From: Planctomycetota bacterium
GTDB lineage: Bacteria; Planctomycetota; JAJSAM01; JAJVHW01
Length of the DNA stretch: 64,000 nt
Direction of reading: 5' to 3'
Assembly (NCBI GenBank): GCA_965248445.1
Contig: CBDFJG010000003.1
Span: 785,081-849,080 of the forward strand
Both the position numbers and the translations under genes were made by a program. The notes under the pieces were generated by a model. It was not told where the DNA came from, did not search any database, and worked only from the letters and a program-made list of their open reading frames with translations. Shown here piece by piece: positions 43,272 through 62,224 of the stretch (position 1 is its first letter; each line of letters begins with the position of its first letter).

Positions 43272-44489
43272 CTAGAGAACCCGAGCCAGGACGATCACGT
43301 TGACGTTCTTCGTTTTGCCGTTCTCCGCGACCACCTTGCCCGTGGCGCGCAGCCGGATGGTCTCTCCGCGCACGGTCGTGAACGCGAGAACCTCGATCGT
43401 GACTGCCGCGGGTATTCGCGTCGTGTCGTAGACCTTGCCCTTGTTCGTCACGACGGAGAACAGCTTGCCGTCCGCTCCGCCGTTCGTGAGGGGATCGGCA
43501 ACCGTGAACCCCGTGCCGACCGAGTCCGGGAACTCGATCGTCATGTCGACCTTGGCTCCGAAGAACCGTTTCGAGACGCCGCCGCGGAAGATCTCGACGC
43601 GGCCGTTCTGGATGAAGGCCGTCGCGAGATCAATCTGGTTCTTCGGCGGCGGAGGCGGCTTCGGCGGCGGCTTGTCGGGAGTCGGGATGACGGGGATCGT
43701 CACGGCCACGTCGTCGATGTCGATGAGCGGCGTGTGCACGTCGGCGACCGCGTGGAACCCATCCTGATCGACGGGCCCCGTCATCTCGACCGACCAGCCC
43801 TTGCCCTTGACGCGGAGCGTGCCCGTGGTGACGCCGCTCGCGTCGGTGCGCATCTTCCCCTTCACCTTGCCCTTGCCGAGGGCATCGCCTCCCCAGATCT
43901 GGAGCGTCGCTTCGGACGGGCGGGCGCGGCCGGCCTCCTGCACCTTGGCCGCCTTGATCCGTCCCCGCTTGTTCTGCGCGAGTCGCATGAACAGCACGAA
44001 CGTGTCCGGTGCCGACGACGGAGGCGTGCGCCCCAGCGTGAGCGGGCCGCTGCTCGACTCCGTCCCGCCACCGAAGCCGATCTCGCGCGTGTGCGTCCCG
44101 TCGATCCCGAGCCCGTTCTCGGCGACGACGCCGTCGAACGTGAAGCCGGGGGTCGCGATGGAGACGCGCGTGCGGCCGGTCGCCTCGTCGATGCCCCACG
44201 TGCCCGTCGCCGTGTAGATGAAGTTGCCGACCTGGCCGGCGGTGCCGCCCCCGGAGAGCTTCCCGGGACCGTCGAACGCCAGGAGGAGGTTGGCGTTGAA
44301 CTCGCCGACGTCGTAGCCGTAGCGGCCTTCGATCGTCGCGACCCCCACCTCCATGTCGAGCAGGTACTCACCGTCCACGGACCAGTCGGGCACGCGCCTC
44401 GCGCCGAGTCCGTCGGCGGCAGGGAGCACGAGGACACCCGCCACGAGCAGCAGCTGGGCGGCGAGGGCAGGGAGTGGGCGTCGAGGCAT
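43272..44489 (-). CDS. Hypothetical secreted protein (beta-rich, with a Pro/Lys-rich linker PDKPPPKPPPPPK)
   Basis: An internal start at MPRRPLPALAAQLLLVAGVLVLPAADG gives a signal peptide. 405 aa. Confidence 0.5.
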   Translation of the reverse strand: MPRRPLPALAAQLLLVAGVLVLPAADGLGARRVPDWSVDGEYLLDMEVGVATIEGRYGYDVGEFNANLLLAFDGPGKLSGGGTAGQVGNFIYTATGTWGIDEATGRTRVSIATPGFTFDGVVAENGLGIDGTHTREIGFGGGTESSSGPLTLGRTPPSSAPDTFVLFMRLAQNKRGRIKAAKVQEAGRARPSEATLQIWGGDALGKGKVKGKMRTDASGVTTGTLRVKGKGWSVEMTGPVDQDGFHAVADVHTPLIDIDDVAVTIPVIPTPDKPPPKPPPPPKNQIDLATAFIQNGRVEIFRGGVSKRFFGAKVDMTIEFPDSVGTGFTVADPLTNGGADGKLFSVVTNKGKVYDTTRIPAAVTIEVLAFTTVRGETIRLRATGKVVAENGKTKNVNVIVLARVL

Positions 44490-44575
44490 CCACCCGAGTC
44501 TACGAGCCGATGCAGCCTGCGTTACGGAAGCCTCCCGCTCCCGCCTCTGACAGGCTGCTCGGGTAGAGTGCTCGG

Positions 44576-44995
44576 GTGAGCGGCCCACAGGACTCCGAGC
44601 CCCCGATCGCCGAAGGCAGCAGGCGGCGTGCGGAGCGCGCTCTCCGCCGAATCTGGAAGGACATGGTCGGGCAGCTCGTCGACGAGTGCGTCGAGAACGA
44701 GCCGAGCCTCTCGGGCCAGGGCTTCTCGTACGCCTACCAGGCCATCGAGGACCGCTTCGCGCAGCGGATCTTCCTCGCGGGCCAGATGATCGGAGCCGTG
44801 CAGAACGCAGCGCCCCGCGCGCCGCAGCCGCCCCCGGACTTCCGCGTGGTGCGCGTCGAGGGCGCGCTCGACGAGCTCGACGAGCGCATCAATGAGAAGC
44901 TCCGCGACCTGCCGGGACACGCGGTCCACGGGCTTCAGATCGCCTCGGACGACGACGAGACGTGGCACGCGTTCCTGACCGTCTCGACGGATTGA
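44576..44995 (+). CDS. Hypothetical protein (139 aa)
   Basis: An open frame with a GTG start and good third-position GC bias. No recognisable motif. Confidence 0.3.
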   Translation: MSGPQDSEPPIAEGSRRRAERALRRIWKDMVGQLVDECVENEPSLSGQGFSYAYQAIEDRFAQRIFLAGQMIGAVQNAAPRAPQPPPDFRVVRVEGALDELDERINEKLRDLPGHAVHGLQIASDDDETWHAFLTVSTD

Positions 44996-46917
44996 CCGCA
45001 GCGCCGCAGCGCAGCGGCCGCCGGGATCTCGCCGTCCTCGGCGTCGCGTTCGGGGTTCCTCTGCTCGTGCTCTCGGTCGAGCGTGCGCTACTCCATGGAG
45101 CGCACGGGCCGGAGACGGAACTCGGCCCGCTGCTCGGCGCGTTCGTGCACGGCCTCCGCTTCGACGCCGCGGGCGTCGCCTACCCGTTCGCCATCGCGCT
45201 GATCGTAGCCACCGTTGCCGCGCTCCGCGGCCGCCGGCGCATCGAGCGCGCCGCACTCGCCGCAGTCACGCTCTGGACAGGTGTCGTCGTCAGCTTCGAG
45301 CTGCCGTTCTTCGCGGAGTTCCGCTCGCGCCTCGACGGGACAGCCCTCGAGTATCTGGACGACCTCGGCACCGTGATCGGGACGACCGACTGGCGCATGC
45401 GGCTGTCATTCGCCGTTGCGCTGCTGGCCACCGGACTGGTGACGCGCTTCGCGGCGCGCCGGCTGCGCCGCACGATCGAGAAGACAAGTCTCCCGACACG
45501 CGCGCTGTGGGCACGCGGGATCGCGGTGATCCTCGTCGCGGTCTTCATCCGCGGCGGCATCGATCGCCCGCTGCGTCCCGCGGACGCGGCCGCCTCCACC
45601 CATCACCTGACGCAGCTCACGCTCTCCGGACCGTGGACGATCCTGCGCAGCGCGTACGAACGCAGCAAGGACGGCGGCGACCTCGACTACGGCGTGGGCG
45701 ACGAGGACGCCGCACTCGCGTTGATCCGTACCGCGCTGTTCCCGGGCAGCCCGTTCGTGCGGGACGACCGCCCCATGCTGCGGCAGGTCGGCATCCCGGG
45801 CAAGCAGAGGCGCAGCGCGATCGTCGTCGTCCTCGAGTCGTTCGCCGCCCAGCACGTGGGGGCGCTGGGTGCGGCCAAGTCGTGGACGCCCCAGCTCGAC
45901 GCGCTGATCGCGGAGCGCGGAGACCTCTACACACGCTGCCTGGCCAACGGACCGACCACCAACCGCGCGCTGCCGGCGCTGCTGGCCGGCATTCCGAGCA
46001 CCCTGCGGCACGGCGCGCTGACCAAGTCGCTCGACGGACAGCGTGAGTTGCTGACCATCGGCCGCGTGCTCGGCGAGCAGGGCTGGCGCACCGCGTTCCT
46101 GACCGGCGGTGCGGCGTCCTGGGAGAACCTCGGCGGCTGGTGCAAGGGCCAGGGATTCGCGGAAGTCGTGGACCGCGACGCGTTCCCCGTGTCGGAGCGG
46201 CTGTCGGTGTGGGGCGTGGCGGACGGTCCCCTCTTCCGCAAGGCGCTCGCGCTCTGCGACGGGAGCGCTGCCGGCGGCACGCCGTTCTGCGTCGTCGTGC
46301 TGACCGGCAGCAATCACCCGCCGTATGCAGTCCCAGAGGCCTACCGACCGGACGTGCGAGTCGCCCGCGAGCGCGCGATGCGGTACGCCGACGACGCTGC
46401 CGCGGAGTTCGTCCGCACGGTACTCGCGCGCAACTGGGCGGCCACGACCGACGTCTACCTCGTCGGAGATCACGGAGTCACCTCCGCGCCTCGCGCGGTG
46501 ATCGACCCCGAACGGCACCACGTCCTGCTGTGGACCACGCGGGGCGGCGACGAGGCCGCCACGACTCACGATGCCGTCGTCTCCCACGTCGACGTGCCGG
46601 CGACGCTCCTGCGCATGTGCGGGTACCAGGGCGAGTTCGCCGGCTGGGGAGCAGGACTCGGCAGCGAGCACGGCGCACCCGCGGTCCTCGGGTCACGGGG
46701 CGGCGCGCGCGTGCTGGCGACGGTGCGGGGCGACATCTGGCTCGTGGACCACCTGGACGGACCGACCGAGGCCTTCCGGTGGGACGCGCGCAGCGGGCTG
46801 GTCACGCCGCTCCTGCGGGCGGATCCGGTCCCCTCCGTGCGTCGGACAACGCAGCACGGCCGCGCACTCCTGCACCTCGCCGACCGCGCCCTCCGCGAGG
46901 GCCGGGCCGGCCGCTGA
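44962..46917 (+). CDS. Membrane-anchored sulfatase-family protein (LTA synthase/phosphoglycerol-transferase-like, alkaline phosphatase superfamily)
   Basis: Five N-terminal TM helices are followed by a periplasmic sulfatase-like domain (VVVLESFAAQH, LTGSNHPPY, DHG). The start is uncertain (34-nt overlap with the upstream ORF). Confidence 0.65.
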   Translation: MARVPDRLDGLTAAPQRSGRRDLAVLGVAFGVPLLVLSVERALLHGAHGPETELGPLLGAFVHGLRFDAAGVAYPFAIALIVATVAALRGRRRIERAALAAVTLWTGVVVSFELPFFAEFRSRLDGTALEYLDDLGTVIGTTDWRMRLSFAVALLATGLVTRFAARRLRRTIEKTSLPTRALWARGIAVILVAVFIRGGIDRPLRPADAAASTHHLTQLTLSGPWTILRSAYERSKDGGDLDYGVGDEDAALALIRTALFPGSPFVRDDRPMLRQVGIPGKQRRSAIVVVLESFAAQHVGALGAAKSWTPQLDALIAERGDLYTRCLANGPTTNRALPALLAGIPSTLRHGALTKSLDGQRELLTIGRVLGEQGWRTAFLTGGAASWENLGGWCKGQGFAEVVDRDAFPVSERLSVWGVADGPLFRKALALCDGSAAGGTPFCVVVLTGSNHPPYAVPEAYRPDVRVARERAMRYADDAAAEFVRTVLARNWAATTDVYLVGDHGVTSAPRAVIDPERHHVLLWTTRGGDEAATTHDAVVSHVDVPATLLRMCGYQGEFAGWGAGLGSEHGAPAVLGSRGGARVLATVRGDIWLVDHLDGPTEAFRWDARSGLVTPLLRADPVPSVRRTTQHGRALLHLADRALREGRAGR

Positions 46918-46967: not shown

Positions 46968-47864
46968 TCAGGTGCCGTCGCCGACGGGCGCCAGTTCGCG
47001 GAGCGTTCCGAGGATGGACGGGACGTCGCGGTGGGTTCGGTCGAACTCGAGCACCTTCACGGTGAGGAGTCCGAACGGCGCTTCCGGGCAGCACTTCTCG
47101 AGGACGTGGGACAATCGGTGGCCCACGGCCCAAGCAGCGCCGGGATGCGTGCGCGGCATCACCAGCGCGATGTGGCTCGGTCCGATGGAGAAGACGGCGT
47201 CGGTCGCGCGCACGACCTGCGGAGCGATGTTCGCCACGCACTCGGCCAAGAGACCCGCCGACGTGCCCTCCCCGCCCGAGCTGAACAGTGAGACGACGCT
47301 GAGATGACTCGCGTCCCGGCCGGCGAGATTCAGCTCGGTCCGTAGGGCTGACTCGAACGCGTTCAGTCCACGCACGCGTACTCGTTCCGCCGGCGGGCGC
47401 GCCGAACCGGTACCGAGCGGCCGCAACTCCTGAGAGCGAAAGTGCTCCTCGATCCGGGCCAGCAACGACCCGACGTCGGGGACGCCGACGTCAACCGGGA
47501 TCACGTCGATCTTGCACGGTCCGATCTCCGCGACCGGGCGGTGGTTCGCGCGCTGCTCGAGCCGGTGGCGCACCACGTGGCCGACCTCTGTACCAGTGGC
47601 GGGGAGAACCGCGATGTAGCAGCCGCGCAGGCCGTAGTGGTACACGCCGTCCGAGATCCGCACCGACCTCGCGAAGTGGTCCGACACCTGTCGATCGAGC
47701 CGCTGCTGCGCGCCCTCCGCCTCGCCGTCCCAGACGATGAAGTGCAGCGCGATCACGCAGAGCGGCAGCCCGTGCCGCGCCCCGCGCTCGTACTCGTAGC
47801 GCAGCCGCTCGCTCAGCTCATCCGGTGAGAGGATCTCCCGCCGGGGTCGTTCCGTGTCCGTCAT
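46968..47864 (-). CDS. Hypothetical protein composed of two tandem degenerate GGDEF/palm-like domains
   Basis: Two ~140-aa halves each resemble the GGDEF core but with degenerate signature motifs (LCVIALHFIVWDG...YHYGLRGCYIAVLP and SVVSLFSSGGEG...HIALVMP). It is the last gene of the flotillin/AAA operon. Confidence 0.45.
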   Translation of the reverse strand: MTDTERPRREILSPDELSERLRYEYERGARHGLPLCVIALHFIVWDGEAEGAQQRLDRQVSDHFARSVRISDGVYHYGLRGCYIAVLPATGTEVGHVVRHRLEQRANHRPVAEIGPCKIDVIPVDVGVPDVGSLLARIEEHFRSQELRPLGTGSARPPAERVRVRGLNAFESALRTELNLAGRDASHLSVVSLFSSGGEGTSAGLLAECVANIAPQVVRATDAVFSIGPSHIALVMPRTHPGAAWAVGHRLSHVLEKCCPEAPFGLLTVKVLEFDRTHRDVPSILGTLRELAPVGDGT

Positions 47865-47947
47865 CCGTCGCCCGCTCCAGGGGGCCAGCGGTTCGAATAT
47901 CGACGGTCAGCGGCGTTTCTGAACCCCCCTGAGCCGCACAGGCTCGC

Positions 47948-50900
47948 CTAGGCGTCGTCCTCGGGCTTCTTCTTCCGCGGGCGGCGGAAGCGTTCGAGGG
48001 CCTGGCTGATCGCGCCGACGCGCTCCCACACCGCCTTGCTGACGGTCAGGTTGTGGTTCAGGGAGCGGAGCACCGGGAGAAGGCCGACCTCGATGACCTC
48101 GGCCTGGCGGGCGGCGAGGTACTTGAAGTCGGGATCAGCGCCTGCCGGAGCAGCGGCGTCGCTCTGTGCACGCGCTGGCGAGGCTGACTCGGCGGCGCGG
48201 GACTCGGCGAGCGCGGCGAGGTTGTCCTCGAGGCGCGTCAGGTACGGCGCGAGTGCCTGGGCGAGGCCGGCGCCCGCGTCCCCGTTGCTGTCGGCTGCGA
48301 CGAGCGCCTCGCGCAGCGCCTCGCGCTCGCGATCCTGATGATCGTCGCGGGCGGCTTGCGCCTCGATCACATGCGTCTCGTGCTCGGCGGTGAGCGTGGT
48401 CGCCGTGCGCAACGCGTCGCCGATCCCCCCCATCCGCTCGGAGATGTCCATGAGCTGCGCGGTGACGCGCATGACCGGATCGTCCTCGTCGCCGCCCATC
48501 ATCTGGCGGCGGCGGAACGCGTCCCGGATCTCGGTCCAACGGGCGGACTGCTCGTCCGTCATTCGCTCCCGCAGCTCTGCGAACTTGAGGAGGTTGTGCT
48601 CGGCGCCGCTGGTCAGCGTCTGCGACTCGCCCAGGTAGTGGTCCTCGATCAGCACCTCGAGTTCGTCGTCGTTCATGACGGCGACGATCTTCTCGGCCAG
48701 CTTGTTCATGTTGCGGTAGCTGCCCTGCAGCTGGAACCGGGGCTCCGTGCGGAACGCGTCGTCGGTGGACGCGGATCGGATGTACTCGCGGTTCACCGCG
48801 AGTAGGACCTCCTGCACGCGCAGGACCTTGCCGAGCACGCTCACGATCTCGTCCAGCTCGACCTGCGAGAAGTCGGCCGAGAGCTCCGAGGTCTGGACCT
48901 GCTCCCCGCGCGCCATCCGCACGAGAGGGTGGATGTCCTTGTGGCCGCGGTTCGCAACCGTCTGCAAGACGGCGTTCGACGTGAGCGCGTTCTCGATGTA
49001 CGACATCGCGAACAGCTCGTCCTTGCCGGAGAGCACGTCGCCCAGGTTGTAGACGTCGGCGCGGTTCGCCAGCATGTCCGGCACCTGGAACCGCTCGCCG
49101 GACTCCGTGTAGGGATTGCCGGCCATGCAAACGACGAACTTCTTGCCGCGCAGATCGTACGTCCGCGTGCGTCCGTTCCACACGCCCTCGACCCTGCGCG
49201 TGGCGTCGCAGAGCGAGATGAACTTCTGCAGGAACTCCGAGTGCGTGTGCTGGATGTCGTCGATGTAGAGCAGCACGTTGTTGCCCATCTCGAACGCGAG
49301 GTTGACCTTGTCGATCTCCTGGCGCGCGGTGGCGTTCGGCGCCTCGTCCGGATCGAGCGAGCGCACGTCGTGACCGAGTGCCGGGCCGTTGATCTTCATG
49401 AAGACGAGACCCAGGCGGTTGGCGATGTACTCCATGAGAGTCGTCTTGCCATAGCCCGGAGGTGATATCAGCATCAGCAGGCCCATCAGGTCCGTGCGCT
49501 TCGCGGCGCCGCGTGCGCCCAGCTGCTTCGCCAGGTTGTCGCCGATCACCGGCAGGTAGACCTCGTCGATGAGCCGGTTGCGTACGAACGCGCTCATCAC
49601 ACGCGGCAGGTACTCCTCGATGCGCAGCCTGTTCCGCTCTCGCTCGAGCAGGTCGTGCCGCATCTGCTGGTACGTCCTGAACCCCGGCACCCGCTCGTGC
49701 GCGAAGCGCGCGAGGCGCGCCAGGTACTCGTCGAGCCGCAGTTCCATCTTGCGGCCGGAGATCCGCCCGTGCTGGCCCAGCAGTCCGTCGATCTCGACGG
49801 TGGCCGCCGCGCTTGTGATGTCGCGACGCAGTTGCTCCGCGGTCAGGAGCAAGACAACGGCCTCGGGAACGAGGTGCGCGATCGCTGCGCCGTCGTCGCG
49901 GGTCGCAAGCCAGGCGGTCAGCCATGCGTCGGCGACGGCGTACTGCTCGCCCACGGCGCCGCCCAGCGCGCCGAGGTCCTGCTCCAGAGCGCGCAGCTGC
50001 TTGCGGCGCTTCAGGTCCTTCTTGAATGCGTCGGAGAGCGCGACTGACTCGCTGCTCGCGATGAAGCGGCCCGGGTCTCCGCCGAGCTCCTCGAAGAGGT
50101 AGCGCCCCGCGAGTCGCGCGTCACCGTCGGTGAGCGGCAAGCCGTGCACGTCATGGAAGGTGCGAATGCGATTCGTCAGATCCTCCTCGAGAGCGTCCAC
50201 GGCGCCCGCGCGGTGCAGAGCCTCGCTCAGGCGGAACAGGCTGCTCGCCCGGCGGGTCAGCCGATCTCGGGCGTCGACATCGTCGAAGCGCGCCCAGAAG
50301 AGGCAGGCCGCGGCGCGCGCCGCCGGCGCAAAGCGCAGCATTCCCGCAGTCTGGTAGACACCGAAGACCGCCTTGAGAACGAGCGTCGCATCGGCGTCGT
50401 GTACCCCGCGTTCGTAGCCCTCGTCGTAGCGCTCGGCGGAGAACTCACGCACGAGTGCGAGCAGCGCATCGGCATCCAGCGCCGCCTCGGCCAGCCGCGA
50501 TGCGGAGAGGCCGCCTTCGTTCCGCTCCGCGGCCCGCAGCATGCAGTACGCCAGATACTCGCCGCGGTAGACGTCGGAGGTCTCGGAGACGACGGCCTGC
50601 TCCCAGTACTCGCGCGTGGCATCGAACGCCTCGTCGCGCACCGCCTCGCGGAAGTCCGTACCGCTGAGGTGCACTGCGAGCCCTTCGTCGTGCGGGACCA
50701 GCGTGAGATCCAGCGGCTGTGTGTTCACGCTGAAGCGGTGCTTGCCGAGGCGGATGACCGTCGCGCCGTCCTCGAAGATGTCGATGCGGTCGCGCATCGC
50801 CCGGACGGCGTCCTCGCGCGTCGACTTCAGCCGCGACTCGACTTCGTCGGCGCGGACGGAGTCGTCGAGGCCGCTCAGCTGCTCGGCCAGGTCACGCACC

Positions 50901-53341
50901 TTGAGGACCATCGCGTCGGACGCGAAGTACGCGTGCAGCTCATCGAGGGTCTGCATCCCGGCGGCGCGGCGCGTCACGCCGGAGAGGATGCGATCGACTG
51001 CGCGCATCATCCCGATCGCCCGCCGCTGGCGCTGGTCGAGCAGGCGCTGCTTCTTGCCCTCGAGGGCCTCGTAGATCTCCTCGCGCTTCGTGGTGAGCTG
51101 TTCCACGAAGTCCTCGAGCTCACCGAAGCGGCCCTCGAGCTCTTCGACGTGGAGCATCAGCTTGGAGAGTTGCTCGTCACACCGCTCGGGGGTGTCCGCG
51201 AGCGCGACGGCCCCGGAAACGGACTGCGAGAGGAGTGCATACTGCGCGGCGAACTCAGCGACGCCCTCCTTCGACATCAGCTCCTTGCGACGGGCTGCGA
51301 CGAGCGCGCGGGTCCGGTTGAGCCCCCCCATCACCTCGCTGATCCGTTCGAGGATCCCCGTGCGGATCGTGGCGTCGTCGATCTTCAAGCTGCCCACGAC
51401 GTCGGTGAGGAGCTCGAGCCCGTCGCCAATCGCCGTCAGATTCTCCGAGAGCGGCTTGGCGTCCGCGGTCTTCGCGACCGCCTGGATCGACGACTCCACC
51501 GCGGCGACGCGGTCGTGGTACGGCGCCAGCGCGCCGGCTCCCTGCAGGAACTCGACCGTGCGCTCAGAAACGCGATCGCGGTGCCCGACGACCGTCTCTT
51601 CTAGCGCGGTGATCCGCTCGCCGTCCGCGTAACGCATCTCACGGAGCGACACGAGGCGCCCCCGCTCGGTACGGAGGCCCGCCAGCGCGCCCACGAAGTC
51701 GTCGACGCTCTTCCAGTGGTCCGGGCGCAGTGTGGCTACCAGTTGCCTGACCCCGGCATCCGCTTCGGCGACCGCTCTCCGCGCCTGTGCGCGCAGCTCC
51801 TGCACCTTCTCGAACTCGTCGATGATCAGCTCGGATGCCGCTAGCACTTCCTGCAGCGTGCTCAGCAGGTCGCCGACCTCTGCGTCGCCGAGCCAGTGGT
51901 ACGTGTCGATGACCTTCGACGTGACACCGATCAGCTCCTCGTACATCTCGCGGCTCGGCGTCTGCTCGTCAGTCATGCGCCGGATCGAAAGCGCATCGCT
52001 GATGCCGCGCACGAGGTCTGCGTTCCCGAGGCGCTCGAGGTGCGAGTCGCCGGCCGGCGCGGCGGCGTGGAAGACATCGCTGGTGAACGGCGTCTGCCAG
52101 ATCTGCATTGCGTGCACGCGTGTCGGTTCGTCGCCGGCGCTACGGAAGACGATCATCTTGCCGTCGTCGAACACGCTCTGCCCGTGGCCGCGGATCGGGG
52201 TCTCGACCTCTTTGCGGATCAGGTTGTAGGGCAGCAGCACGTACTCGCCCTCGACCTGGCGGTGGAAGATGTACAGGACGTCCTCGCCGTTCGGTGAGCG
52301 GATGGCGCGCTCGAACTGCATGCTCTGCACGTCGGCGGCGAACGTGCGTGTCTCGCCGCGGCGCAGGTAGTAACCGCCGGGGTAGATGATCCCGTGATCC
52401 TCGGGCAACTGCACGCAGGCGTGCCCGATCTGGTCGATCCGCTCGACCTTCTTCGTGATCGTGTTGAAGACGAGATACCGCCACGTCTCTTCACGGAACG
52501 GCAGGACCTTGATCAGGATCAGGGAGCCGAGCTTCGCGTAGTGGACCGACGCGTCGTCGAGCGCCTGAGTCCCGTCCAGCACCGGCTCGCGGTACACGCC
52601 CAGTCCGTCGAGCGTGTTGTCCTCGACCTTCACGGTCAGGTCGCCGCCGACCGTCTCGACGAAGACCTCATCCAGGATCGAGACGTGCGGGTGCTCTCCG
52701 GACACGTGGTCGTCGCGCGTCGTCTCGATCCACTCGAAGTCGTGCGTCGCCGGGAAGACGTGGTCGCGGTCGCCCTGGTTGTCGAGGTATGTGAGAGTGC
52801 CGTCGGCGTCGATGGACCAGCGGAACGCCTTGAGATCGACCAGTGTCCGTCCGACCTGGAACACGGCCAGCAGCCTGCCGTTCACTCGGCGCAGCGAGAG
52901 CAGCCGCGTGTCCTTGTAGTAGTCGTAGAGCTCGCGGAAGTCCTTGCGGAATCTCGGGTCCGCCAGGAAGTCGGCGGGATCACCCGCGGGCACCTCGACC
53001 AGGCCGAGGCGATCGCCGTCGCGGGAGAGGCGGCGCAGTGTGAACACGTCCTCGAGGCGCGTCTCGCGGCGCAGCCCGATGAACACGTTGTATCCGAAGA
53101 CCAGCAGGTCCCCGACTGCGACGATGTCGCGCGCGATGCAGTTGTTCTCGGTCCGGATTCGTTCGCTGCCGACGACCTCGAGGCGCGCCCCGCCGAACAG
53201 CGCGACGCGCGCGGCGTTCAGCGCCTCGGCCTTCCGCGACAGCTCCCGGCCGTGGCCGAGGAGCCGGTCGCGGATGACCTCGTACGCACCCTGTTCGATC
53301 CCGGCAGGTTCCGGTTCAGAGGGCGAGGCGGCGTCCGCCAT
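47948..53341 (-). CDS. Giant (1797 aa) protein with a single AAA_5 (MoxR/dynein/midasin-like) ATPase domain near residues ~1290-1470, a beta-rich N-terminal domain and long helical regions
   Basis: Walker A LISPPGYGKTTL, Walker B-like VLLYIDDIQH, and sensor/Arg-finger region VCMAGNPYTESGERFQVPDMLANRADVYNL. A ~400-aa beta-rich N-terminus is followed by ~800 aa of predicted helix/coiled coil, and the C-terminus ends RPRKKKPEDDA. It lies 19 nt downstream of the flotillin gene. Confidence 0.8.
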   Translation of the reverse strand: MADAASPSEPEPAGIEQGAYEVIRDRLLGHGRELSRKAEALNAARVALFGGARLEVVGSERIRTENNCIARDIVAVGDLLVFGYNVFIGLRRETRLEDVFTLRRLSRDGDRLGLVEVPAGDPADFLADPRFRKDFRELYDYYKDTRLLSLRRVNGRLLAVFQVGRTLVDLKAFRWSIDADGTLTYLDNQGDRDHVFPATHDFEWIETTRDDHVSGEHPHVSILDEVFVETVGGDLTVKVEDNTLDGLGVYREPVLDGTQALDDASVHYAKLGSLILIKVLPFREETWRYLVFNTITKKVERIDQIGHACVQLPEDHGIIYPGGYYLRRGETRTFAADVQSMQFERAIRSPNGEDVLYIFHRQVEGEYVLLPYNLIRKEVETPIRGHGQSVFDDGKMIVFRSAGDEPTRVHAMQIWQTPFTSDVFHAAAPAGDSHLERLGNADLVRGISDALSIRRMTDEQTPSREMYEELIGVTSKVIDTYHWLGDAEVGDLLSTLQEVLAASELIIDEFEKVQELRAQARRAVAEADAGVRQLVATLRPDHWKSVDDFVGALAGLRTERGRLVSLREMRYADGERITALEETVVGHRDRVSERTVEFLQGAGALAPYHDRVAAVESSIQAVAKTADAKPLSENLTAIGDGLELLTDVVGSLKIDDATIRTGILERISEVMGGLNRTRALVAARRKELMSKEGVAEFAAQYALLSQSVSGAVALADTPERCDEQLSKLMLHVEELEGRFGELEDFVEQLTTKREEIYEALEGKKQRLLDQRQRRAIGMMRAVDRILSGVTRRAAGMQTLDELHAYFASDAMVLKVRDLAEQLSGLDDSVRADEVESRLKSTREDAVRAMRDRIDIFEDGATVIRLGKHRFSVNTQPLDLTLVPHDEGLAVHLSGTDFREAVRDEAFDATREYWEQAVVSETSDVYRGEYLAYCMLRAAERNEGGLSASRLAEAALDADALLALVREFSAERYDEGYERGVHDADATLVLKAVFGVYQTAGMLRFAPAARAAACLFWARFDDVDARDRLTRRASSLFRLSEALHRAGAVDALEEDLTNRIRTFHDVHGLPLTDGDARLAGRYLFEELGGDPGRFIASSESVALSDAFKKDLKRRKQLRALEQDLGALGGAVGEQYAVADAWLTAWLATRDDGAAIAHLVPEAVVLLLTAEQLRRDITSAAATVEIDGLLGQHGRISGRKMELRLDEYLARLARFAHERVPGFRTYQQMRHDLLERERNRLRIEEYLPRVMSAFVRNRLIDEVYLPVIGDNLAKQLGARGAAKRTDLMGLLMLISPPGYGKTTLMEYIANRLGLVFMKINGPALGHDVRSLDPDEAPNATARQEIDKVNLAFEMGNNVLLYIDDIQHTHSEFLQKFISLCDATRRVEGVWNGRTRTYDLRGKKFVVCMAGNPYTESGERFQVPDMLANRADVYNLGDVLSGKDELFAMSYIENALTSNAVLQTVANRGHKDIHPLVRMARGEQVQTSELSADFSQVELDEIVSVLGKVLRVQEVLLAVNREYIRSASTDDAFRTEPRFQLQGSYRNMNKLAEKIVAVMNDDELEVLIEDHYLGESQTLTSGAEHNLLKFAELRERMTDEQSARWTEIRDAFRRRQMMGGDEDDPVMRVTAQLMDISERMGGIGDALRTATTLTAEHETHVIEAQAARDDHQDREREALREALVAADSNGDAGAGLAQALAPYLTRLEDNLAALAESRAAESASPARAQSDAAAPAGADPDFKYLAARQAEVIEVGLLPVLRSLNHNLTVSKAVWERVGAISQALERFRRPRKKKPEDDA

Positions 53342-53362
53342 CGGCGTTCTCCCGCTCCCCGC

Positions 53363-55351
53363 CTAGGACCCGCGTCCGTCGGTCAGTCCGAGCTCCTTCG
53401 CGCGTTCGACGAGCGCCCCGAGCTTCTCCCGTGTCCCCTTGTCCGCGCCGGCCATCATCTTGGTGATGAGCGCGGCGATGGACAGGTTGCGCAGGTCGCC
53501 CGAGGAGATCCCCGAGATCAGCCGCTGCGCGTCGTCGGGGAGGCTGCGCTTGCCGTCGATGTAGTCGCCGAGCAACGCACGCCCCGTGTCGCTGTTCTGC
53601 GCCATCTCGTCGAGCGCCTTGCCGCCGGACACGGCGCCGAGGATGCGGTCGAAAAACTGGCCCTCGCCGCCGATGATGTCGATGTCCGCGCTCTCGAACG
53701 CCTTGCCGAGCGTCTCGGCCTGCGCCTCGGCGATCTTGCGGTTCGCATCGATCGCGGCGATCTCGACGTCCTTCTCCTTCTCGAGCTGGATGCGGAACTC
53801 CTCGTGCTCGCGGCCCACGCCGTCGAGCTTCTTCATCGCGTCGGCCTTCTCGGTGAGACCCGCCGCTTCTGCGGTGAGCTTCGCCTCGATGGCGATGGCT
53901 TCTGCGCGACCGGTCTTCTCGGTGGCGACGGCGTCCGCCTCGCGCACCTCGACGATCGCCAGTCCGGACGCGGCCTCTTCGGCCCGCACGCCCTCGGCGA
54001 GGCGGATCTTCGCCTGCGCCTCCTTCTCGGAGGCCTGCAGTTCGGCGTCAGCCAGCACGATGCGCTTCGTCGCATCGTGCCGGGCGGCCTGCTCGCTGGC
54101 GTCGGCGGCCCGGACCTCCTGGACGAGTTTCTCCTGCGCCGCGGCCTGGGCGCCGATCACGACCGCTTCCTTCAGCCGCTTCGCCTCTTCGACGACCCGC
54201 ACTTCCTTGATCGCCTCCTCCTCCACGGCGACGGCCCGTTCGACCTCGACGCGCTGGCGGATGACGTCCTGGATCTCCTTGCGCTCCACCTCGAGCGCCT
54301 TCTCCTTGAAGATCCGCTCGAGTTCAACCGCCTTCTCGCGGGAGATCGCCTCGAGGTCGCGGTCACGCTGCACCCGCTCGATCTCGATGCCGATCACGCG
54401 CTCGCGGTTCTTCTCGGCGACCTCGATCTGCCGGTGCTTGTTCTGGTCCTGAACGCCGAGATCCTCGGCGGTCTTGATCTGCGCCGTCTCGGCCTTCAGA
54501 TGCTCCTCGGCCTCCACGCGGGAGGTCTCCGCGGCCTCACGCGCCTGGACGGTCTTGATCTCGCGCTGCTGCTTGGCGAGCGCCTCCGCCTGGTTGCGTT
54601 CGAGCTCGTACACGGCTTCCGCGCGCTCGACGTCCTGCTTCTTGATCTGCTTGATCTCGTTGTTCGTGAACAGGTTCGTCGAGATGTGCTCGCGCGTGGT
54701 GAGGTCGGTGATCTTCCGGATGCCCTCGGCATCGAGGATGTTGTCACGGTCGAGCATCTCCAGCGGGGTCTGCTCGAGGTAGTCGATCGCGGCGTCGTCG
54801 AGCACGTACCCGTTCAGGTCGCGTCCGATGATCTCGATGATCTGGTCGCGGAACTCGTCGCGCCGGGTGTAGAGATCCACGAACTGCAGTTGCTTGCCGA
54901 CGGTCTTCAGTGCCTCGGAGAACTTCGCGATGAAGAGGTCTTCGAGAGTCTTCTGGTCCGAAGCACGCTTGCAACCGATCGACTGCGCGACCTTGAGGAC
55001 GTCCTCGGTGGTCTTGTTGACCCGCACGAAGAATGTGACCTTGATGTCAGCGCGGATGTTGTCCTCGCAGATCAGGCCTTCCTTGCCGCGACGGTCGAGT
55101 TCCATCGTCTTGACCGAGATGTCCATGACCTCGGCACGGTGGAAGACGGGCAGCACGTAGCGCCCGGTGAACGTCACGTCCGGCTCTTGCTTCATCGTGT
55201 TCACGATGAGCGCCTTGCCCTGGTCCACCTTCCGGTAGATGCGGGTGAAGAACACCATGAAGGCGAGCAACAGGAAGAAGAAGCCGACGACGACCGCGCC
55301 GATCGTCATCAGAGTTCCCATGTCAGCAGCCAGCAGGTTCAGGGTTTCCAT
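53363..55351 (-). CDS. Flotillin-family SPFH (band 7) protein, YqiK/FloT-like, 662 aa
   Basis: An N-terminal TM hairpin (MGTLMTIGAVVVGFFFLLLAFMVFF), an SPFH/PHB domain, and a long EA/EK-rich coiled-coil flotillin domain (repeated AE.A..A motifs). Confidence 0.85.
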   Translation of the reverse strand: METLNLLAADMGTLMTIGAVVVGFFFLLLAFMVFFTRIYRKVDQGKALIVNTMKQEPDVTFTGRYVLPVFHRAEVMDISVKTMELDRRGKEGLICEDNIRADIKVTFFVRVNKTTEDVLKVAQSIGCKRASDQKTLEDLFIAKFSEALKTVGKQLQFVDLYTRRDEFRDQIIEIIGRDLNGYVLDDAAIDYLEQTPLEMLDRDNILDAEGIRKITDLTTREHISTNLFTNNEIKQIKKQDVERAEAVYELERNQAEALAKQQREIKTVQAREAAETSRVEAEEHLKAETAQIKTAEDLGVQDQNKHRQIEVAEKNRERVIGIEIERVQRDRDLEAISREKAVELERIFKEKALEVERKEIQDVIRQRVEVERAVAVEEEAIKEVRVVEEAKRLKEAVVIGAQAAAQEKLVQEVRAADASEQAARHDATKRIVLADAELQASEKEAQAKIRLAEGVRAEEAASGLAIVEVREADAVATEKTGRAEAIAIEAKLTAEAAGLTEKADAMKKLDGVGREHEEFRIQLEKEKDVEIAAIDANRKIAEAQAETLGKAFESADIDIIGGEGQFFDRILGAVSGGKALDEMAQNSDTGRALLGDYIDGKRSLPDDAQRLISGISSGDLRNLSIAALITKMMAGADKGTREKLGALVERAKELGLTDGRGS

Positions 55352-55383
55352 GTTCCTCTTTCTCCTCGGGACCGGTCAGGTCC

Positions 55384-56097
55384 CTAGACGTCCTCTCCGA
55401 GCTCTTCAGCCGGCGCGATGTGAAATACCTCGTCGTCCGCGTCGTAGTCGCTGACGACGGCAGTCGATCCCCGTGCCAGATCGTTCTTCCGGGAACAGCG
55501 CACCTGCACGAGGTGAGGTGCGCCACCCGTGCCGACTTCGGCCTGGCCGAAGGTGGCGGTGACTCGTTGTGTGGTGATCGTGCACATGCGCCCGATCAGC
55601 TCCCGGCGGCGTTCCGCCAGGTGCGGTGTGAACAGCTTGCGCAGGGGGCGCACACACACGGCCGCCGGAGGGACGGCGAGCGCAAGCGCGCCGACGCCGA
55701 CCGCGATGGCGACCGGGATCTGCAGGCCCGTGCCGACTCGCGGCAGGATCCAGCCGCTGCTGAGCGCCGAGAACCCCCAGCTGAACAGCACCAGCAGACT
55801 GAACGCAATCGAGACCGGCACTCCCGCGAGGCCGAGCGCGCTGAGCATCCCGCCGTGATGGCCGCCGCCGTCGTGATCGTGGTCCAAGTCTGCGTCGGCG
55901 TCGATGTCCACGTCGATGTGGCCGTGGCCGTGCGGGATGTGCGCGCCGTCCACGTCCAAGTCCAGGTCCACGTCGTGGTGGCTGAAGATGTCGACGGCGC
56001 CCAGGAAGCCAAGGCACCAGTACAGGATCACGATGCCGAGCAGGACCGTGTAGACCACCGTCGGGATGGTCGTGATCGTGTCGAGAAAGGTGCCCAT
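55384..56097 (-). CDS. NfeD/YqiJ-like membrane protein with C-terminal OB-fold and a His/Asp-rich low-complexity insert
   Basis: The N-terminus has TM helices. An insert reads HHDVDLDLDVDGAHIPHGHGHIDVDIDADADLDHDHDGGGHHGG. The C-terminal beta-barrel (CTITTQRVTATFGQAEVGTGGAPHLVQVRCS...AVVSDYDADDEVFHIAP) is typical of NfeD partners of SPFH proteins. It lies immediately upstream of the flotillin gene. Confidence 0.7.
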   Translation of the reverse strand: MGTFLDTITTIPTVVYTVLLGIVILYWCLGFLGAVDIFSHHDVDLDLDVDGAHIPHGHGHIDVDIDADADLDHDHDGGGHHGGMLSALGLAGVPVSIAFSLLVLFSWGFSALSSGWILPRVGTGLQIPVAIAVGVGALALAVPPAAVCVRPLRKLFTPHLAERRRELIGRMCTITTQRVTATFGQAEVGTGGAPHLVQVRCSRKNDLARGSTAVVSDYDADDEVFHIAPAEELGEDV

Positions 56098-56408: not shown

Positions 56409-57341
56409 CTAGAAGCGGTGCACGACGACGAAGCTCCAGAAGAACTTCTCGTCACCGTCGCGTGTCTCGCCGAACGAGACGGCGATCAGGGTCAGCCCGG
56501 CGTTCGTGGAGCCCGCGACGGCGAACCCGCCGTTGAACTTGAACGCGCCCTTGAAGCTGCTGTTCTCAATCCGCATCTCGTCGTACATCGGACCGGTGTG
56601 CACCCGCAGGCCCTTCTCGAAGTGCGACGTCATGACGTCGATGTCGTCCTCGCCGTCCACGGTCGTCACCCGCACCGCGGCCTGGAAGGTGCATCCCCGC
56701 ACGGCCACCTCGTCCGCTCCGTCGCCGGTGTTCAGACTGATGGAAGCGAGGTGCGTGGCACCGTTCTGGGCCAACTCGACCCGGTCGTCGCCGGAACCCG
56801 TGCGGATCCGCGTGCGCGCATCGAGCGTGGAGGCCGCGATGCGCACGCTGTCGCTGCCGTCGCGCGCGAGGATCGTGAGTCGGCTCCTGAAGCGGGTGGC
56901 AGCGTCCACGTCGATCTCGTCGTCGCCCACGCCGGCGTCGATGCGCACCCGCGAGCGGAACACGCAGGTGTACAGGGTCAACCGGTCGTCACCGGTACCG
57001 AGGTCGATCGTGACGCCACGCCGCACCCGGACCGCGCCGAGGGCGACCACGTCGTCTCCGTGGCCCGCATCGATCTGCAGCTTGCGCACGCGGGGGAGTT
57101 CGACCACCAGCTGGCCGTTCACGGTCGTCTCGTTGCGGCCCGTGATGATCAGGGTTCCGCCGTCGCCACGCTCGAGCGCGACGTCGTTTGCGGAGTCGTC
57201 GCCGAGGATTCGCACGAGCCCGCGGTCGCCGGCCTCGACCTGCACGTCGCCTCCGGCGAACGCGGGCGCAGCGAGGGCTAGAACGGTGGCGGGCAGAAGG
57301 GCGGCGAGCAGGTGGCGGCCGAAGAGTCTGACGGGGCGCAT
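56409..57341 (-). CDS. Secreted tandem-repeat protein (beta-helix/beta-roll-like G-x-G-D-D repeats)
   Basis: A signal peptide (MRPVRLFGRHLLAALLPATVLALAAPAFAGG) is followed by ~9 repeats of ~22-25 aa containing [DN]xGxGDD[RE]ψ (DAGHGDDVV, DLGTGDDRL, DAGVGDDEI, RTGSGDDRV, NTGDGADEV, VDGEDDIDV). Confidence 0.5.
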   Translation of the reverse strand: MRPVRLFGRHLLAALLPATVLALAAPAFAGGDVQVEAGDRGLVRILGDDSANDVALERGDGGTLIITGRNETTVNGQLVVELPRVRKLQIDAGHGDDVVALGAVRVRRGVTIDLGTGDDRLTLYTCVFRSRVRIDAGVGDDEIDVDAATRFRSRLTILARDGSDSVRIAASTLDARTRIRTGSGDDRVELAQNGATHLASISLNTGDGADEVAVRGCTFQAAVRVTTVDGEDDIDVMTSHFEKGLRVHTGPMYDEMRIENSSFKGAFKFNGGFAVAGSTNAGLTLIAVSFGETRDGDEKFFWSFVVVHRF

Positions 57342-58927: not shown

Positions 58928-61900
58928 TCAGCGCCGCGGCACGTCGAGCTGGAAGGACGCGAACTTCGGGTCGGGACCCCACGTCGCAATCCCGATGCGC
59001 GTCTGGCCCGCGATGGGCCGCACGGGGACGCGATCCAGCACGAGCGCCGTGCCGAGCCACACCGTCAAGCGGCGGTCGTGGTAGGTCAGCACCAGCTTCC
59101 GCGTCTCGGCCTCCGCGAGGTCCACCGGCGGGCACTGGTGGAACAGGCGCTGGTAGCGCTCGAGTTCGGCGCGCAGCACCTTCTTGCCGCCGGAGTGCAG
59201 GATCAGGTTCCAGCCGGAGAGGCCGTCGGTGCCGCCGTCGCCCTGGAACGTCACGAGCATCTTGGGCGCCTTGTCGATCGGCAGGACGAGGTCCATCGTC
59301 AGCCGGAACTCGTCGACGTCCTTGGTGAACTTGTCCTTGAGCCACATCAGGTTCGAGGGGTTGTCCTTCGTCACGCCCGGACGGACCGTGTACTTGCGCC
59401 ACGCGACCCTCTTGTCCGTGGCGGCGCCGGAGAGCAGCTTGTTCATCACGACGAAGCGGCCGGCCGCGACGTCGAGCTTCGAGGTGAACGACTTCTGCCG
59501 AAAGTCGTGCTTCGTGACCGGTTTCCACCGCTTCGGCGGATCCGGATGGAGCGGCACGGCCGGCGCCGCGTCGTCACTTGCGAGGGCGGGCAGCGGGCTG
59601 CCGTCCGGCTTGCACACCGCGACGCTGAATCCCGCGACACCGCCACCGTTCCTGACCCTGACGAGGATGCGGTTACGCCCTGCACGCAGCGTCCACGGCA
59701 GCCGCAGTCCGTCGGCGACCATCTTGTGCGGTCCCCGCCACCCGGCGCCGCGGCTCGAGTTGGTCCCCGGCCAGCGCAAGCCCTCGACCAGGTCGCCGTT
59801 CACGTAGAGCGTGACGTCGTCGTCCCCGCGCACGTGGAACGCAACGGGTGTCTCTTCTGGCACCGTCACGTGCGTCAGACCGTAGCTCGCCGTGTGATCC
59901 ATGTACGCGTACTTGACGTCGACCCACCCGGTCGAGCGGACGGACACTGGACCCGGGTCGGTCACCTTGCGCCACTTGCAGATGTTGCCCTTGCCGGGGT
60001 ACTCCGCCGCGAAGTCGATCTCGTCCTGCGGCGGGAAGATGCACGCGCCTGGATCGGTACCCTTCGTCGCGAACGGCCCGATCACGCGCCAATCGAAAAG
60101 GACGCCGAGCTCATCGCGGGCGATCGTGCGCGCCGCCTCGTGCTCCTCGCGCTCCGCTGCCTCGATCACCCGCCGCATGACAAGGTCGCGCTTCAGCGGC
60201 GAGTTCTCGAAGCCCTGCACGTCCTCCTCGGCCCACCTCACTGCCCGGTCACCGTCCGCGAACGCACTCATCTCGAGCCGGACAGCCTCCCGGTCGCTCT
60301 CGACCAGGGGCAGGCGGAACCTCACCAGGTCGTCGAAGGCGGCCTCGCCGAAGTGCCGCATCAGGTAGAAGGCCACCGCCCGCGCCACGTACGTCGTGCG
60401 GCCGTCGCGAACCGGAGCGTCCCGGTAGTCGCGGAAGAACCCGCGCAGCGGCTTCCAGTCGTGCCCGCTCTTCCGCTTTGCGTAGGTCCGGACGAAGTGC
60501 AGGAAGAAGCCGGCGCTCGGGCCGTAGTTCGGGATGCGCCAATACGCCAGATCTCGCGCGACGTAGTCCTTCTCGAAGTCGGACAGGTTCTTGTCGAAGC
60601 CGTGCAGGCTGTCCGAGGTCTGCCCAAGCGCCTCGAACGCGAAGACGGCCCCGACGTTGGCGAGTCCCTCGCGCCATCCGCCGAGAACCGGTTTGGTGTC
60701 GTCGATGCAGTGCGTCAGTTCGTGGTAGAGCAGGCCGGTGTCGAGACGGGAGCCGCGCCGCTCGGGATCCGCGTTCCCGATGTTGATCTGCTTCCCGCCG
60801 CCGGTCCCGCCGCTGAACTCCCACAGCTCCTTGAAGTACACGGTCACGCGGTCTCCGGCCGGGTTCGGGACGCGTCCGAACAGGTCGGTCAGGAACACGT
60901 ACGCGACGTCGAAGCGGCGCTTCGAGACGGCGGAGATGCTCTCGATCAGCGCGCGCGGCCCGATCAGAATGAACTCCTGCATGGGCAGCGTCGCCGTGCG
61001 GCCCCACGCCGGGTTGTCGACGACACCGCTCACGAGCGCCGCCTGATCCGGCGGCACGTCGGCGACCCACGTCTTGTCCAGGGTGGTCAGCAACTCCTCG
61101 GACTCGTCCCGCAGGTCCTTCTTCTCGCAGAAGCGGAGTTCCTGGAGCGCGCGGCGGGCGGGGGCGTAGCGCTTCTTCGTCAACCAGCCGCGCGCCGTGT
61201 CGAGGAGCTTCCGCGACTGGCCGCGCTTCTCGACGGCCGCATCCGCCTCGCTGATCTCCTCCTCGGTGATCTGCAACAGAAGCGTCTCACGGACGTCCCA
61301 CTTGTCCTTCTCGGCTCGCGCCGCCGCGTTCACAGCGCCGAGCACGGCCTTGTCGGCCTCCTCCTGCAACGAGCCGCCGATCGCGTCGATGATCGCGAGC
61401 GACGCGTGGTACTGCTTGCGGTCGAAGAACCGGCCGGACATCTGGCGCATGTAGCGGCGCTTCTCGTCGGCGATGCGTGCGTCCACGATGCGTTGCTCGA
61501 CCACCGAGACCGGTGGCGGCGCGAAGTCCCCCAGCGCAAGCATCGCGTCGCGGAAGAGGTACTTCTCCCCGTCCTCGACCGCGCGGCGGACACCCGCAGT
61601 GAGCGCGCGCCAGGCCATGCCCTTCTGCCCCGCCGTGGCAAGTCGCGATGCGGCGTCCAGAACCTCTTGCGCGCCTCCCTTCGACACAGCGTCGAGCGGA
61701 GGCAGGTCGATCAGCGCGACTGCCGCGAACCCCGACCTGTCCGGGAAGCCGTTCTGCGGCGGCTGCACCTTGCGCGTCTCCGGGTCCTGGAACCCGAGGT
61801 GCACCGTCAACTGTCGCGGCGGCTCGATCGCATCGCCGAGCGGCAGCGGCACCGGCACGGTGTAGGTGACCTTGGTCCCCTTCTTCCATGTGCGGGTCGG

Positions 61901-62224
61901 CGGCTCCGGTCCGTGGTCGAGAGTCAGCAGCCGCTTGCCGCGATGCCGCGCCCGCAGCGCGACTGTGTACGCCGCCGCGACGTCCTCGAGGGGCGTGAAC
62001 TCGAGAGTCAGCGTCGCCTGCGCCGTCGTCGCCGCGTCGCCGTCGTCCACCAGCACCCGCACGTCGATGGGCGCGGCCTCGTCCTGCGCCGAGGCGGCCA
62101 GGGGGCAACCGGCCGCAGCGACCAAGAAGAGCGCGAGTCCGAGTCTGCAGCGGAACACAGCCGGACGGTAACACCCGGGCGCGTCCCGAAGCGACCGTGC
62201 GCCGGGACGCACCCGACCCTTCAA
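58928..62224 (-). CDS. Large (1098 aa) secreted protein with a gluzincin-like HEXXH...E motif (putative MA-clan metallopeptidase) and C-terminal beta-rich domains
   Basis: Signal peptide (RPAVFRCRLGLALFLVAAAGCPLAASAQ). The sequence LLYHELTHCIDDTKPVLGGWREGLANVGAVFAFEALG fits HExxH followed by a downstream Glu. No match to a classic family is evident by eye. Confidence 0.55.
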   Translation of the reverse strand: MKGRVRPGARSLRDAPGCYRPAVFRCRLGLALFLVAAAGCPLAASAQDEAAPIDVRVLVDDGDAATTAQATLTLEFTPLEDVAAAYTVALRARHRGKRLLTLDHGPEPPTRTWKKGTKVTYTVPVPLPLGDAIEPPRQLTVHLGFQDPETRKVQPPQNGFPDRSGFAAVALIDLPPLDAVSKGGAQEVLDAASRLATAGQKGMAWRALTAGVRRAVEDGEKYLFRDAMLALGDFAPPPVSVVEQRIVDARIADEKRRYMRQMSGRFFDRKQYHASLAIIDAIGGSLQEEADKAVLGAVNAAARAEKDKWDVRETLLLQITEEEISEADAAVEKRGQSRKLLDTARGWLTKKRYAPARRALQELRFCEKKDLRDESEELLTTLDKTWVADVPPDQAALVSGVVDNPAWGRTATLPMQEFILIGPRALIESISAVSKRRFDVAYVFLTDLFGRVPNPAGDRVTVYFKELWEFSGGTGGGKQINIGNADPERRGSRLDTGLLYHELTHCIDDTKPVLGGWREGLANVGAVFAFEALGQTSDSLHGFDKNLSDFEKDYVARDLAYWRIPNYGPSAGFFLHFVRTYAKRKSGHDWKPLRGFFRDYRDAPVRDGRTTYVARAVAFYLMRHFGEAAFDDLVRFRLPLVESDREAVRLEMSAFADGDRAVRWAEEDVQGFENSPLKRDLVMRRVIEAAEREEHEAARTIARDELGVLFDWRVIGPFATKGTDPGACIFPPQDEIDFAAEYPGKGNICKWRKVTDPGPVSVRSTGWVDVKYAYMDHTASYGLTHVTVPEETPVAFHVRGDDDVTLYVNGDLVEGLRWPGTNSSRGAGWRGPHKMVADGLRLPWTLRAGRNRILVRVRNGGGVAGFSVAVCKPDGSPLPALASDDAAPAVPLHPDPPKRWKPVTKHDFRQKSFTSKLDVAAGRFVVMNKLLSGAATDKRVAWRKYTVRPGVTKDNPSNLMWLKDKFTKDVDEFRLTMDLVLPIDKAPKMLVTFQGDGGTDGLSGWNLILHSGGKKVLRAELERYQRLFHQCPPVDLAEAETRKLVLTYHDRRLTVWLGTALVLDRVPVRPIAGQTRIGIATWGPDPKFASFQLDVPRR

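Follow-up and report, generated by a model that had tools for sequence, protein, structure and literature searches.

Operons in which a CesT/Tir (YjfI)-PspA gene pair is combined with genes for a band-7/flotillin protein, a YqiJ/YuaF-type protein with three transmembrane segments (3TM) and a novel AAA+ ATPase were described by Ravi et al. (mSystems 2024, PMC11237479; bioRxiv 2020). The ATPase of these operons carries an N-terminal beta-propeller and a coiled coil, and a PLD hydrolase sometimes accompanies the operon; 'abbreviated' operons without the CesT/Tir-PspA dyad were stated to be more widely distributed, and a role in sub-membrane assembly and dynamics was proposed (PMC11237479). In Pseudomonas aeruginosa PA14 the 'biofilm-associated cluster' bacABCDEF (PA3732-PA3727 / PA14_16140-16200; Mace 2008; Wallart et al. 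2024, PMC10948618) was found by reverse transcription PCR (RT-PCR) to form one six-gene transcript, for which a sigma-54 promoter was proposed. BacB-F were up 6-13-fold in a bacA mutant, BacB was induced by osmotic shock, and mutants of bacA and bacB showed defects in biofilm, rhamnolipid and virulence (PMC10948618). PA3728 was also listed as an 'ATPase' among the recurrently mutated genes of cystic-fibrosis isolates (PMC8190622). Here, a stretch of 64,000 nt from a Planctomycetota bacterium (GCA_965248445.1, contig CBDFJG010000003.1, positions 785,081 to 849,080; referred to as the window, in whose numbering positions are given) was analyzed, in which consecutive genes encode a YqiJ-like membrane protein, a flotillin and a giant AAA+ ATPase. 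These three genes very probably represent the PspA-less, 'abbreviated' form of this widespread and already described membrane-stress module and are the equivalent of bacC-bacD-bacE.

According to the list of open reading frames (ORFs) and their translations, the YqiJ-like gene (237 aa, 55384-56097), the flotillin gene (662 aa, 53363-55351), the giant ATPase gene (1797 aa, 47948-53341) and a gene for a degenerate GGDEF protein (298 aa, 46968-47864) all lie on the minus strand and are separated, in operon order, by gaps of 32, 21 and 83 nt. The tight same-strand packing of four genes, as recorded in a first-pass annotation that had been made from the letters of this DNA, was thereby confirmed. 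In all four ORFs the G+C content at third codon positions (GC3) was 0.86-0.92, as in real coding genes, the window as a whole having about 68% G+C. A search for sigma-54 promoters gave no site in the 311-nt gap upstream of the operon, and window-wide counts of such sites were below chance.

The RT-PCR primers published for the bac cluster of PA14 translate to motifs of the families studied here, and metagenome contigs with exact copies of PA14 primers were found to encode, in order, YjfI, PspA, a YqiJ-like protein, a flotillin and a 1746-aa protein. The latter is 50.3% identical to the giant of the window over 1,643 residues and has the same Pfam architecture. The flotillin of the window is 46% identical to the ORF in the BacD position of a P. 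aeruginosa-type contig, the YqiJ-like protein is 30% identical to the ORF in the BacC position of such contigs, and the ATPase gene is followed there by bacF, which encodes a 230-aa PLD-like protein (PLDc_2; L093:3271-3963, minus strand). The features that define the BacCDE and Ravi et al. operons, a 3TM protein of the YqiJ/YuaF type in first place, a flotillin, an ATPase of the BacE type and a tight same-strand order, were all found in the window; the CesT/Tir (YjfI)-PspA dyad upstream, a feature of the full operon form only, was not. The view of the first-pass annotation that this arrangement is undescribed therefore does not hold, since it is contained in the work of both Ravi et al. (mSystems 2024, PMC11237479) and Wallart et al. 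2024 (PMC10948618).

For one of the published primers, the printed 21-nt PA14_16180/90_R (PMC10948618 supplement), no exact match was present in the metagenome contigs. The genomic site reads ACCGAGAACAACTGCATCGC (TENNCIA), and the printed primer sequence seems to be a misprint.

When one genome per species was scanned with the giant, at least 600 stretches gave a match, and 80 loci from these were retained; upstream genes were counted in the 72 loci that had enough upstream sequence. The loci belong to Myxococcota, Actinomycetota, Gammaproteobacteria, Planctomycetota and Acidobacteriota. A flotillin gene was located directly upstream of the ATPase gene on the same strand in 69 of these 72 loci, and upstream of the flotillin gene a YqiJ-like gene was additionally present in 67; the exceptions to the order of the triad were insertions or a frameshift. 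The linkage of the YqiJ-like, flotillin and ATPase genes is far beyond chance, and two inner-membrane scaffold proteins are thus linked near-obligately with a soluble AAA+ protein. A functional coupling of the giant to the NfeD/flotillin pair had been suggested in the first-pass annotation, to be doubted if their adjacency proved not to be conserved. As the adjacency of ATPase and flotillin genes is kept almost universally in related genomes, this doubt falls away and the coupling gains support.

When ORFs around the triad were clustered all against all, no universally conserved gene was found either downstream or upstream, and the partners (YjfI-PspA, rhomboid and PLD) were lineage-restricted. 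The module is recurrently associated with genes for PspA/IM30, a CesT-like chaperone, rhomboid and PLD proteins: the YjfI-PspA/IM30 dyad directly preceded the triad, in the same orientation, in 14 loci of proteobacteria and in plasmid pQBR103, a rhomboid gene lay directly downstream of the ATPase gene in six loci and elsewhere in two more, and a PLD-like gene was found downstream in others. With iterated hidden Markov models, no homologue of YjfI or PspA was detected anywhere in the 64-kb window, which therefore carries the 'abbreviated' form of the operon.

Several of these loci deserve a separate description. In GCA_021776825.1, to which the window is most closely related, the triad is preceded at a distance of about 3.3 kb, and on its own strand, by genes for PspA_IM30 and a 569-aa AAA protein (L081:1198-3681); these may form a further PspA-AAA+ pair like those described by Ravi et al. 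The Pseudomonas megaplasmid pQBR103 (L085, NC_009444.1 84437-97641) harbors a 10-gene membrane-stress cluster with the annotations YjfI, PspA, rhomboid, DUF2491, DUF350, DUF1190, glutathionylspermidine synthase-like, hypothetical (in the YqiJ-like position), SPFH and giant ATPase, and thereby joins two PspA contexts that were given separately by Ravi et al.; a literature search returned no papers linking pQBR103 with flotillin. Only 13 plasmid records with the giant were found, mostly megaplasmids or chromids. Just downstream of the ATPase gene of other Gammaproteobacteria (L042, L043, L051 and L057) a cluster of 227-235-aa ORFs was noticed, which may be the same lipid-modifying, PLD-like partner as BacF.

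The gene downstream of the giant was counted as part of the unit in the first-pass annotation, as a tandem degenerate-GGDEF protein. When the 298-aa protein was combined with its four homologues into a profile, GGDEF structures alone were matched, with E 8e-4 for the N-terminal half (~47469-47813, minus strand) and E 0.06-1.3 for the C-terminal half (~47079-47363, minus strand), and matches to diguanylate cyclases in NCBIfam were weak. The GG[DE]EF active-site motif is absent, GLRGC (47613-47639, minus strand) and IGPSH (47166-47192, minus strand) being found at the signature positions, and the similarity of fold is weak to moderate. Since only GGDEF structures were matched and the signature is replaced, the label 'tandem degenerate GGDEF' is reasonable.

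A loss of active-site motifs is typical of receptor-type degenerate GGDEF domains. Together with the GGDEF-like fold backed by the profile matches, the location of the gene 83 nt behind the ATPase gene in the same orientation and a promoter and terminator scan in which no terminator-like or sigma-70-like site was detected around this gap, it would fit a four-gene machine in which the 298-aa protein acts as a sensor of c-di-GMP or GTP and regulates a flotillin-AAA+ complex. Such a machine is nevertheless very improbable. No homologue of the 298-aa protein was found in 83 related loci, including the 64% identical syntenic relative, and no gene downstream of the ATPase gene is universally conserved. 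A collection of 5.8 billion proteins contained only four homologues, and the three whose contigs were read adjoin a sigma-54 activator or FUR, none of them an ATPase of the giant's type. Because the 298-aa gene is absent from the related loci, the conserved unit consists of three genes and not four, and the 298-aa gene is, as judged from gene content, a lineage-specific local neighbour and no component of the system.

At E 0.1 no Pfam match was obtained for the 237-, 662- and 298-aa proteins, and their assignments were therefore tested with family profiles. By Pfam, family profiles and hhalign, the domain assignments that had been made at first reading were borne out for all four proteins. The 237-aa protein matched neither NfeD nor YqiJ of Pfam, and Pfam YqiJ_N was matched by one of its 24 orthologues (E 8e-5). 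The profile of these 24 orthologues aligned with E. coli YqiJ at an hhalign probability of 94.8% (E 5e-8), while a search of the PDB with this profile gave nothing meaningful. On the minus strand, the gene encodes three hydrophobic segments, the predicted transmembrane (TM) segments TM1 (55978-56085), TM2 (55759-55851) and TM3 (55648-55737), with a variable Asp/His-rich linker between TM1 and TM2 (55852-55977) and a conserved beta-rich, OB-like domain at the C-terminus (~55408-55620). From profile match and topology, the protein can be assigned as a YqiJ-like (short NfeD-type) inner-membrane protein and as the orthologue of BacC. The linker is a low-complexity stretch, HDVDLDLDVDGAHIPHGHGHIDVDIDADADLDHDHDGGGHHG, whose length varies widely among orthologues, and it might bind metal ions.

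For the 662-aa protein of the window no match to Pfam Band_7 was found at E 0.1; five of its 24 orthologues matched this family (best E 5e-11). A profile of the 24 orthologues aligned with E. coli YqiK at an hhalign probability of 99.9% (E 4e-32). Compared with FloT of NCBIfam, the window protein gave E 1.7e-6 with a score far below the FloT cut-off. In the PDB, nothing was found with the single sequence, and one weak match to the coiled coil of QmcA was obtained with the profile. The gene encodes, all on the minus strand, a single hydrophobic segment at the N-terminus as the predicted TM segment (55232-55336), an SPFH domain (54707-55231), a Glu/Ala-rich coiled coil (53717-54706) and a C-terminal region with a GGEGQFF motif (53366-53716). 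The protein is accordingly classified, on the strength of the YqiK alignment, as a putative YqiK-type flotillin and orthologue of BacD/PaFlo3. The ATPase-linked flotillins are 47-60% identical to each other across phyla, as opposed to about 27% identity to YqiK.

The 1797-aa protein is assigned by homology to the BacE/PA3728 family of giant AAA+ ATPases, which go by the NCBI name 'DNA repair ATPase'. More than 5,556 homologues were found at E <= 1e-10 (clusters at 90% identity), many of them 53-64% identical over the full length, and an exhaustive scan gave 482 clusters of the family (50% identity, E <= 1e-30), with a uniform architecture in the full-length members. Across phyla the giant is conserved at 45-60% identity over about 1,700 residues. 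No TM segment was found in it, hence it is predicted to be soluble. An AAA_5 domain had at first been considered its only recognisable module; in addition to AAA/AAA_5 (residues 1289-1413), Pfam detected DUF3686 (residues 33-482, E 4e-203) and DUF7902 (residues 604-687, E 1.5e-29).

The giant was modelled with AlphaFold2 with a predicted local distance difference test score (pLDDT) of 84.6 for residues 1-900 and 86.2 for residues 860-1700. The model begins with a helix at the N-terminus, after which come, in order, a beta-domain (residues 55-416, about 27 strands, pLDDT ~85-90), a long rod made up entirely of helices (434-855), a middle domain that is predicted well (860-1250) and an AAA+ module with lid. 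In combination with Pfam and Foldseek, DUF3686 (PF12458, residues 33-482; 51896-53245) was delimited as the N-terminal helix and the beta-propeller-like domain. It is followed by the remaining all-helical rod with DUF7902 (residues 483-855; 50777-51895), by the conserved middle domain, in which a small beta unit precedes a helical domain and for which no relative was recognised (residues 860-1250; 49592-50764), and by the AAA+ module (residues 1279-1640; 48422-49507), all on the minus strand. With Foldseek the beta-domain matched the propeller proteins Ski8, prolyl oligopeptidase and trilobed-protease propellers, IFT-A and ROD (E 1e-4 to 3e-7, with low TM-scores). The AAA+ module was closest in the fold search to dynein, CbbQ, NorQ and midasin, and a sequence search of the PDB with the giant returned matches at the level of the Walker A motif only.

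Within the AAA+ module a Walker A motif (SPPGYGKTTL, 49436-49465), a Walker B motif (VLLYIDDIQH, 49247-49276), sensor-1 (CMAGNPYT, 49106-49129), a putative Arg finger (PDMLANRADVY, 49049-49081) and a putative sensor-2 (LQGSYRNMNKL, 48698-48730) were located on the minus strand, the last two being assigned from their position in the model and the sequence. K1299, D1361-D1362, N1409, R1427 and R1543 are invariant across 77 sequences, and from these motifs the module is predicted to be catalytically intact.

Several homologues of the giant carry the NCBI name 'DNA repair ATPase'; the close matches with a named source are from Myxococcales and metagenome-assembled genomes of Myxococcota. A function in DNA repair, as given in this product name and in the Pfam description of DUF3686, is hardly credible. 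Apart from these database names, it could be based on a weak match to an LmuB/SMC-like coiled coil (E 0.0015). The ATPase is, however, of the AAA+ and not of the ABC/SMC/Rad50 type, Pfam finds no DNA-binding or nuclease domain in it, its regular partners are two membrane proteins, and a literature search returned no paper on DUF3686 or joining the name 'DNA repair ATPase' with flotillin.

The most likely function, which we put forward tentatively, is an ATP-driven remodelling that takes place at the flotillin scaffold under envelope stress. In a first step, for which the solved QmcA-YbbJ and HflK/C assemblies serve as the analogy, an oligomeric flotillin cage would be anchored and nucleated by the YqiJ-like protein at the cytoplasmic face of the inner membrane, and the soluble ATPase of about 200 kDa would dock on this scaffold via its propeller and rod. 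The MoxR/dynein-like AAA+ module might then assemble, disassemble or remodel sub-membrane protein assemblies under envelope stress, the candidate targets being the lattice formed by the flotillin, PspA/ESCRT-III-like polymers whose genes lie outside the operon, and client membrane proteins. As a whole, the explanation that a known BacCDE-type module acts as a flotillin-docked remodeller, with the 298-aa gene excluded, seems to us reasonably probable.

Several observations weigh against this explanation. The propeller assignment of the giant rests on Foldseek matches with low TM-scores, and in PA14 the deletion of the flotillin paFlo3 reduced biofilm by only about 20% and caused no phenotype under stress (PMC13086221). 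A PspA gene is not nearby in the window and in most of the non-proteobacterial loci, and the link to PspA is therefore optional. Further, the Walker B motif of the giant has the form hhhhDD (D1361-D1362) and not DE in all 77 family members, which suggests an unusual or slow hydrolysis chemistry; the giant may thus hydrolyse ATP slowly or act as a switch instead of a motor. The loop of the strand-2/helix-2 region, when read by eye in the sequence, does not contain an aromatic-hydrophobic-Gly motif, which argues against a threading unfoldase. Taken together, a Walker B motif with DD and a pore loop read as lacking aromatic residues fit a MoxR/dynein-like remodeller or switch better than a threading unfoldase.

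The latter point also bears on an alternative in which clients are extracted or subjected to quality control. The flotillin cage would corral membrane proteins that are damaged or unfolded, a role proposed for FloA-NfeD of S. aureus, and the giant would extract them or hand them over, like FtsH in HflK/C, while neither the scaffold nor PspA polymers would be remodelled. This alternative is plausible but unlikely: besides the lack of a canonical aromatic pore loop, Pfam finds no protease domain in the giant, its best structural matches belong to the non-threading MoxR/dynein clade, and a rhomboid gene is present in a minority of loci only.

A more far-reaching version of the flotillin-docked remodeller was also considered. 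IFT-A, ROD and nucleoporin-type proteins are built as a beta-propeller followed by an alpha-helical rod, and in the giant such an arrangement would be fused to a dynein/MoxR-like AAA+ module. Giants of the BacE family could thus be bacterial membrane-coat-like mechanoenzymes, that is, ATP-driven remodellers of flotillin cages and PspA/ESCRT-III polymers analogous to Vps4, perhaps also regulated in this lineage by the adjacent degenerate GGDEF sensor. We regard this as quite unlikely; if true, the giant would be the missing ATP-driven remodeller of flotillin/PspA assemblies in bacteria.

Large NTPases with a propeller sensor resemble some conflict systems, and a defence system was among the possibilities raised in the first-pass annotation. 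The distribution of the module is patchy and looks horizontally transferred, and it occurs on megaplasmids (PMC13086221), as might be expected of anti-phage defence or abortive infection on a membrane scaffold. In PADLOC v2, however, no significant match was obtained for the components, the only matches (E >= 0.0015) being to coiled-coil or P-loop parts of LmuB/IetA. The neighbours were PADLOC-negative apart from a generic subtilase, and no copy was found among 50,697 phage records. Moreover, the neighbours in the window are housekeeping-type or secreted enzymes, Pfam detects neither a nuclease nor another effector domain, the module has PspA, YjfI, rhomboid and PLD as its conserved partners, and the strong conservation of the giant across phyla is unlike that of fast-evolving defence genes. 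A defence function is therefore very doubtful, and it was rejected as a candidate, PADLOC and the phage collection being negative.

In the surroundings of the operon, four ORFs of the window matched neither Pfam nor PADLOC. The most striking encodes 1098 aa (58928-62224, minus strand, GC3 0.91); the others encode 310 aa (56409-57341, minus strand) with a coding-like GC3 of 0.90, and 461 aa (62248-63633, plus strand) and 438 aa (43272-44588, minus strand) with lower values of 0.84 and 0.81, respectively. Convergent to the GGDEF-like gene, a 651-aa protein is encoded (44962-46917, plus strand), of which residues 287-554 match Pfam Sulfatase. No counterpart of this gene was noticed beside the triad in the other loci read.

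The module is widespread, with more than 5,500 clusters of the giant at 90% identity, at least 600 stretches in one genome per species and copies on megaplasmids such as pQBR103, and it is unusually well conserved. The giant family is a plausible ATP-driven player in the dynamic remodelling of bacterial flotillin and PspA assemblies. As the question of remodelling has already been raised in the literature, the window adds one PspA-less example and no discovery: the locus is a further case of a module that is already known and occurs widely. Two misleading leads are corrected by the analysis, namely the product name 'DNA repair ATPase' and the GGDEF-like gene as a member of the system.

Compared with known systems, the locus resembles HflK/C-FtsH in that an AAA+ ATPase works with an SPFH scaffold at the inner membrane, which is an analogy in the way of working only: FtsH is a membrane-anchored protease of the classic AAA clade on the periplasm-facing side of the cage, whereas the giant is predicted to be soluble, lacks a protease domain and belongs to the MoxR/dynein-like group. 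MoxR proteins such as CbbQ and NorQ have about 300 aa and VWA partners, and only the fold of the AAA+ module is shared with the 1797-aa giant; no VWA gene was noticed beside the operon of the window or in the locus tables read, the 80 scanned loci not having been screened for VWA. From the MoxR family and from the AAA modules of dynein and midasin the giant differs further by its single AAA+ module, which follows an N-terminal extension of 1,250 residues, and by the DD in its Walker B motif. E. coli yqiJ-yqiK and B. subtilis yuaF-floT share with the window an NfeD-type 3TM/OB protein followed by a flotillin, but contain no giant ATPase, and the flotillins of the window type form a distinct and much more conserved subfamily. 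The bacABCDEF cluster has the same order of BacC, BacD/PaFlo3 and BacE, at identities to the window proteins of 30%, 46% and 50%. Unlike the window, it comprises bacA (YjfI/CesT-like), bacB (PspA) and bacF (PLD-like) and has a proposed sigma-54 promoter, while in the window the place downstream is taken by an unrelated gene of the degenerate GGDEF type and no sigma-54 promoter-like site is present upstream. The closest correspondence is to the operons of Ravi et al., among which the locus falls exactly into the 'abbreviated' class and differs in nothing essential.

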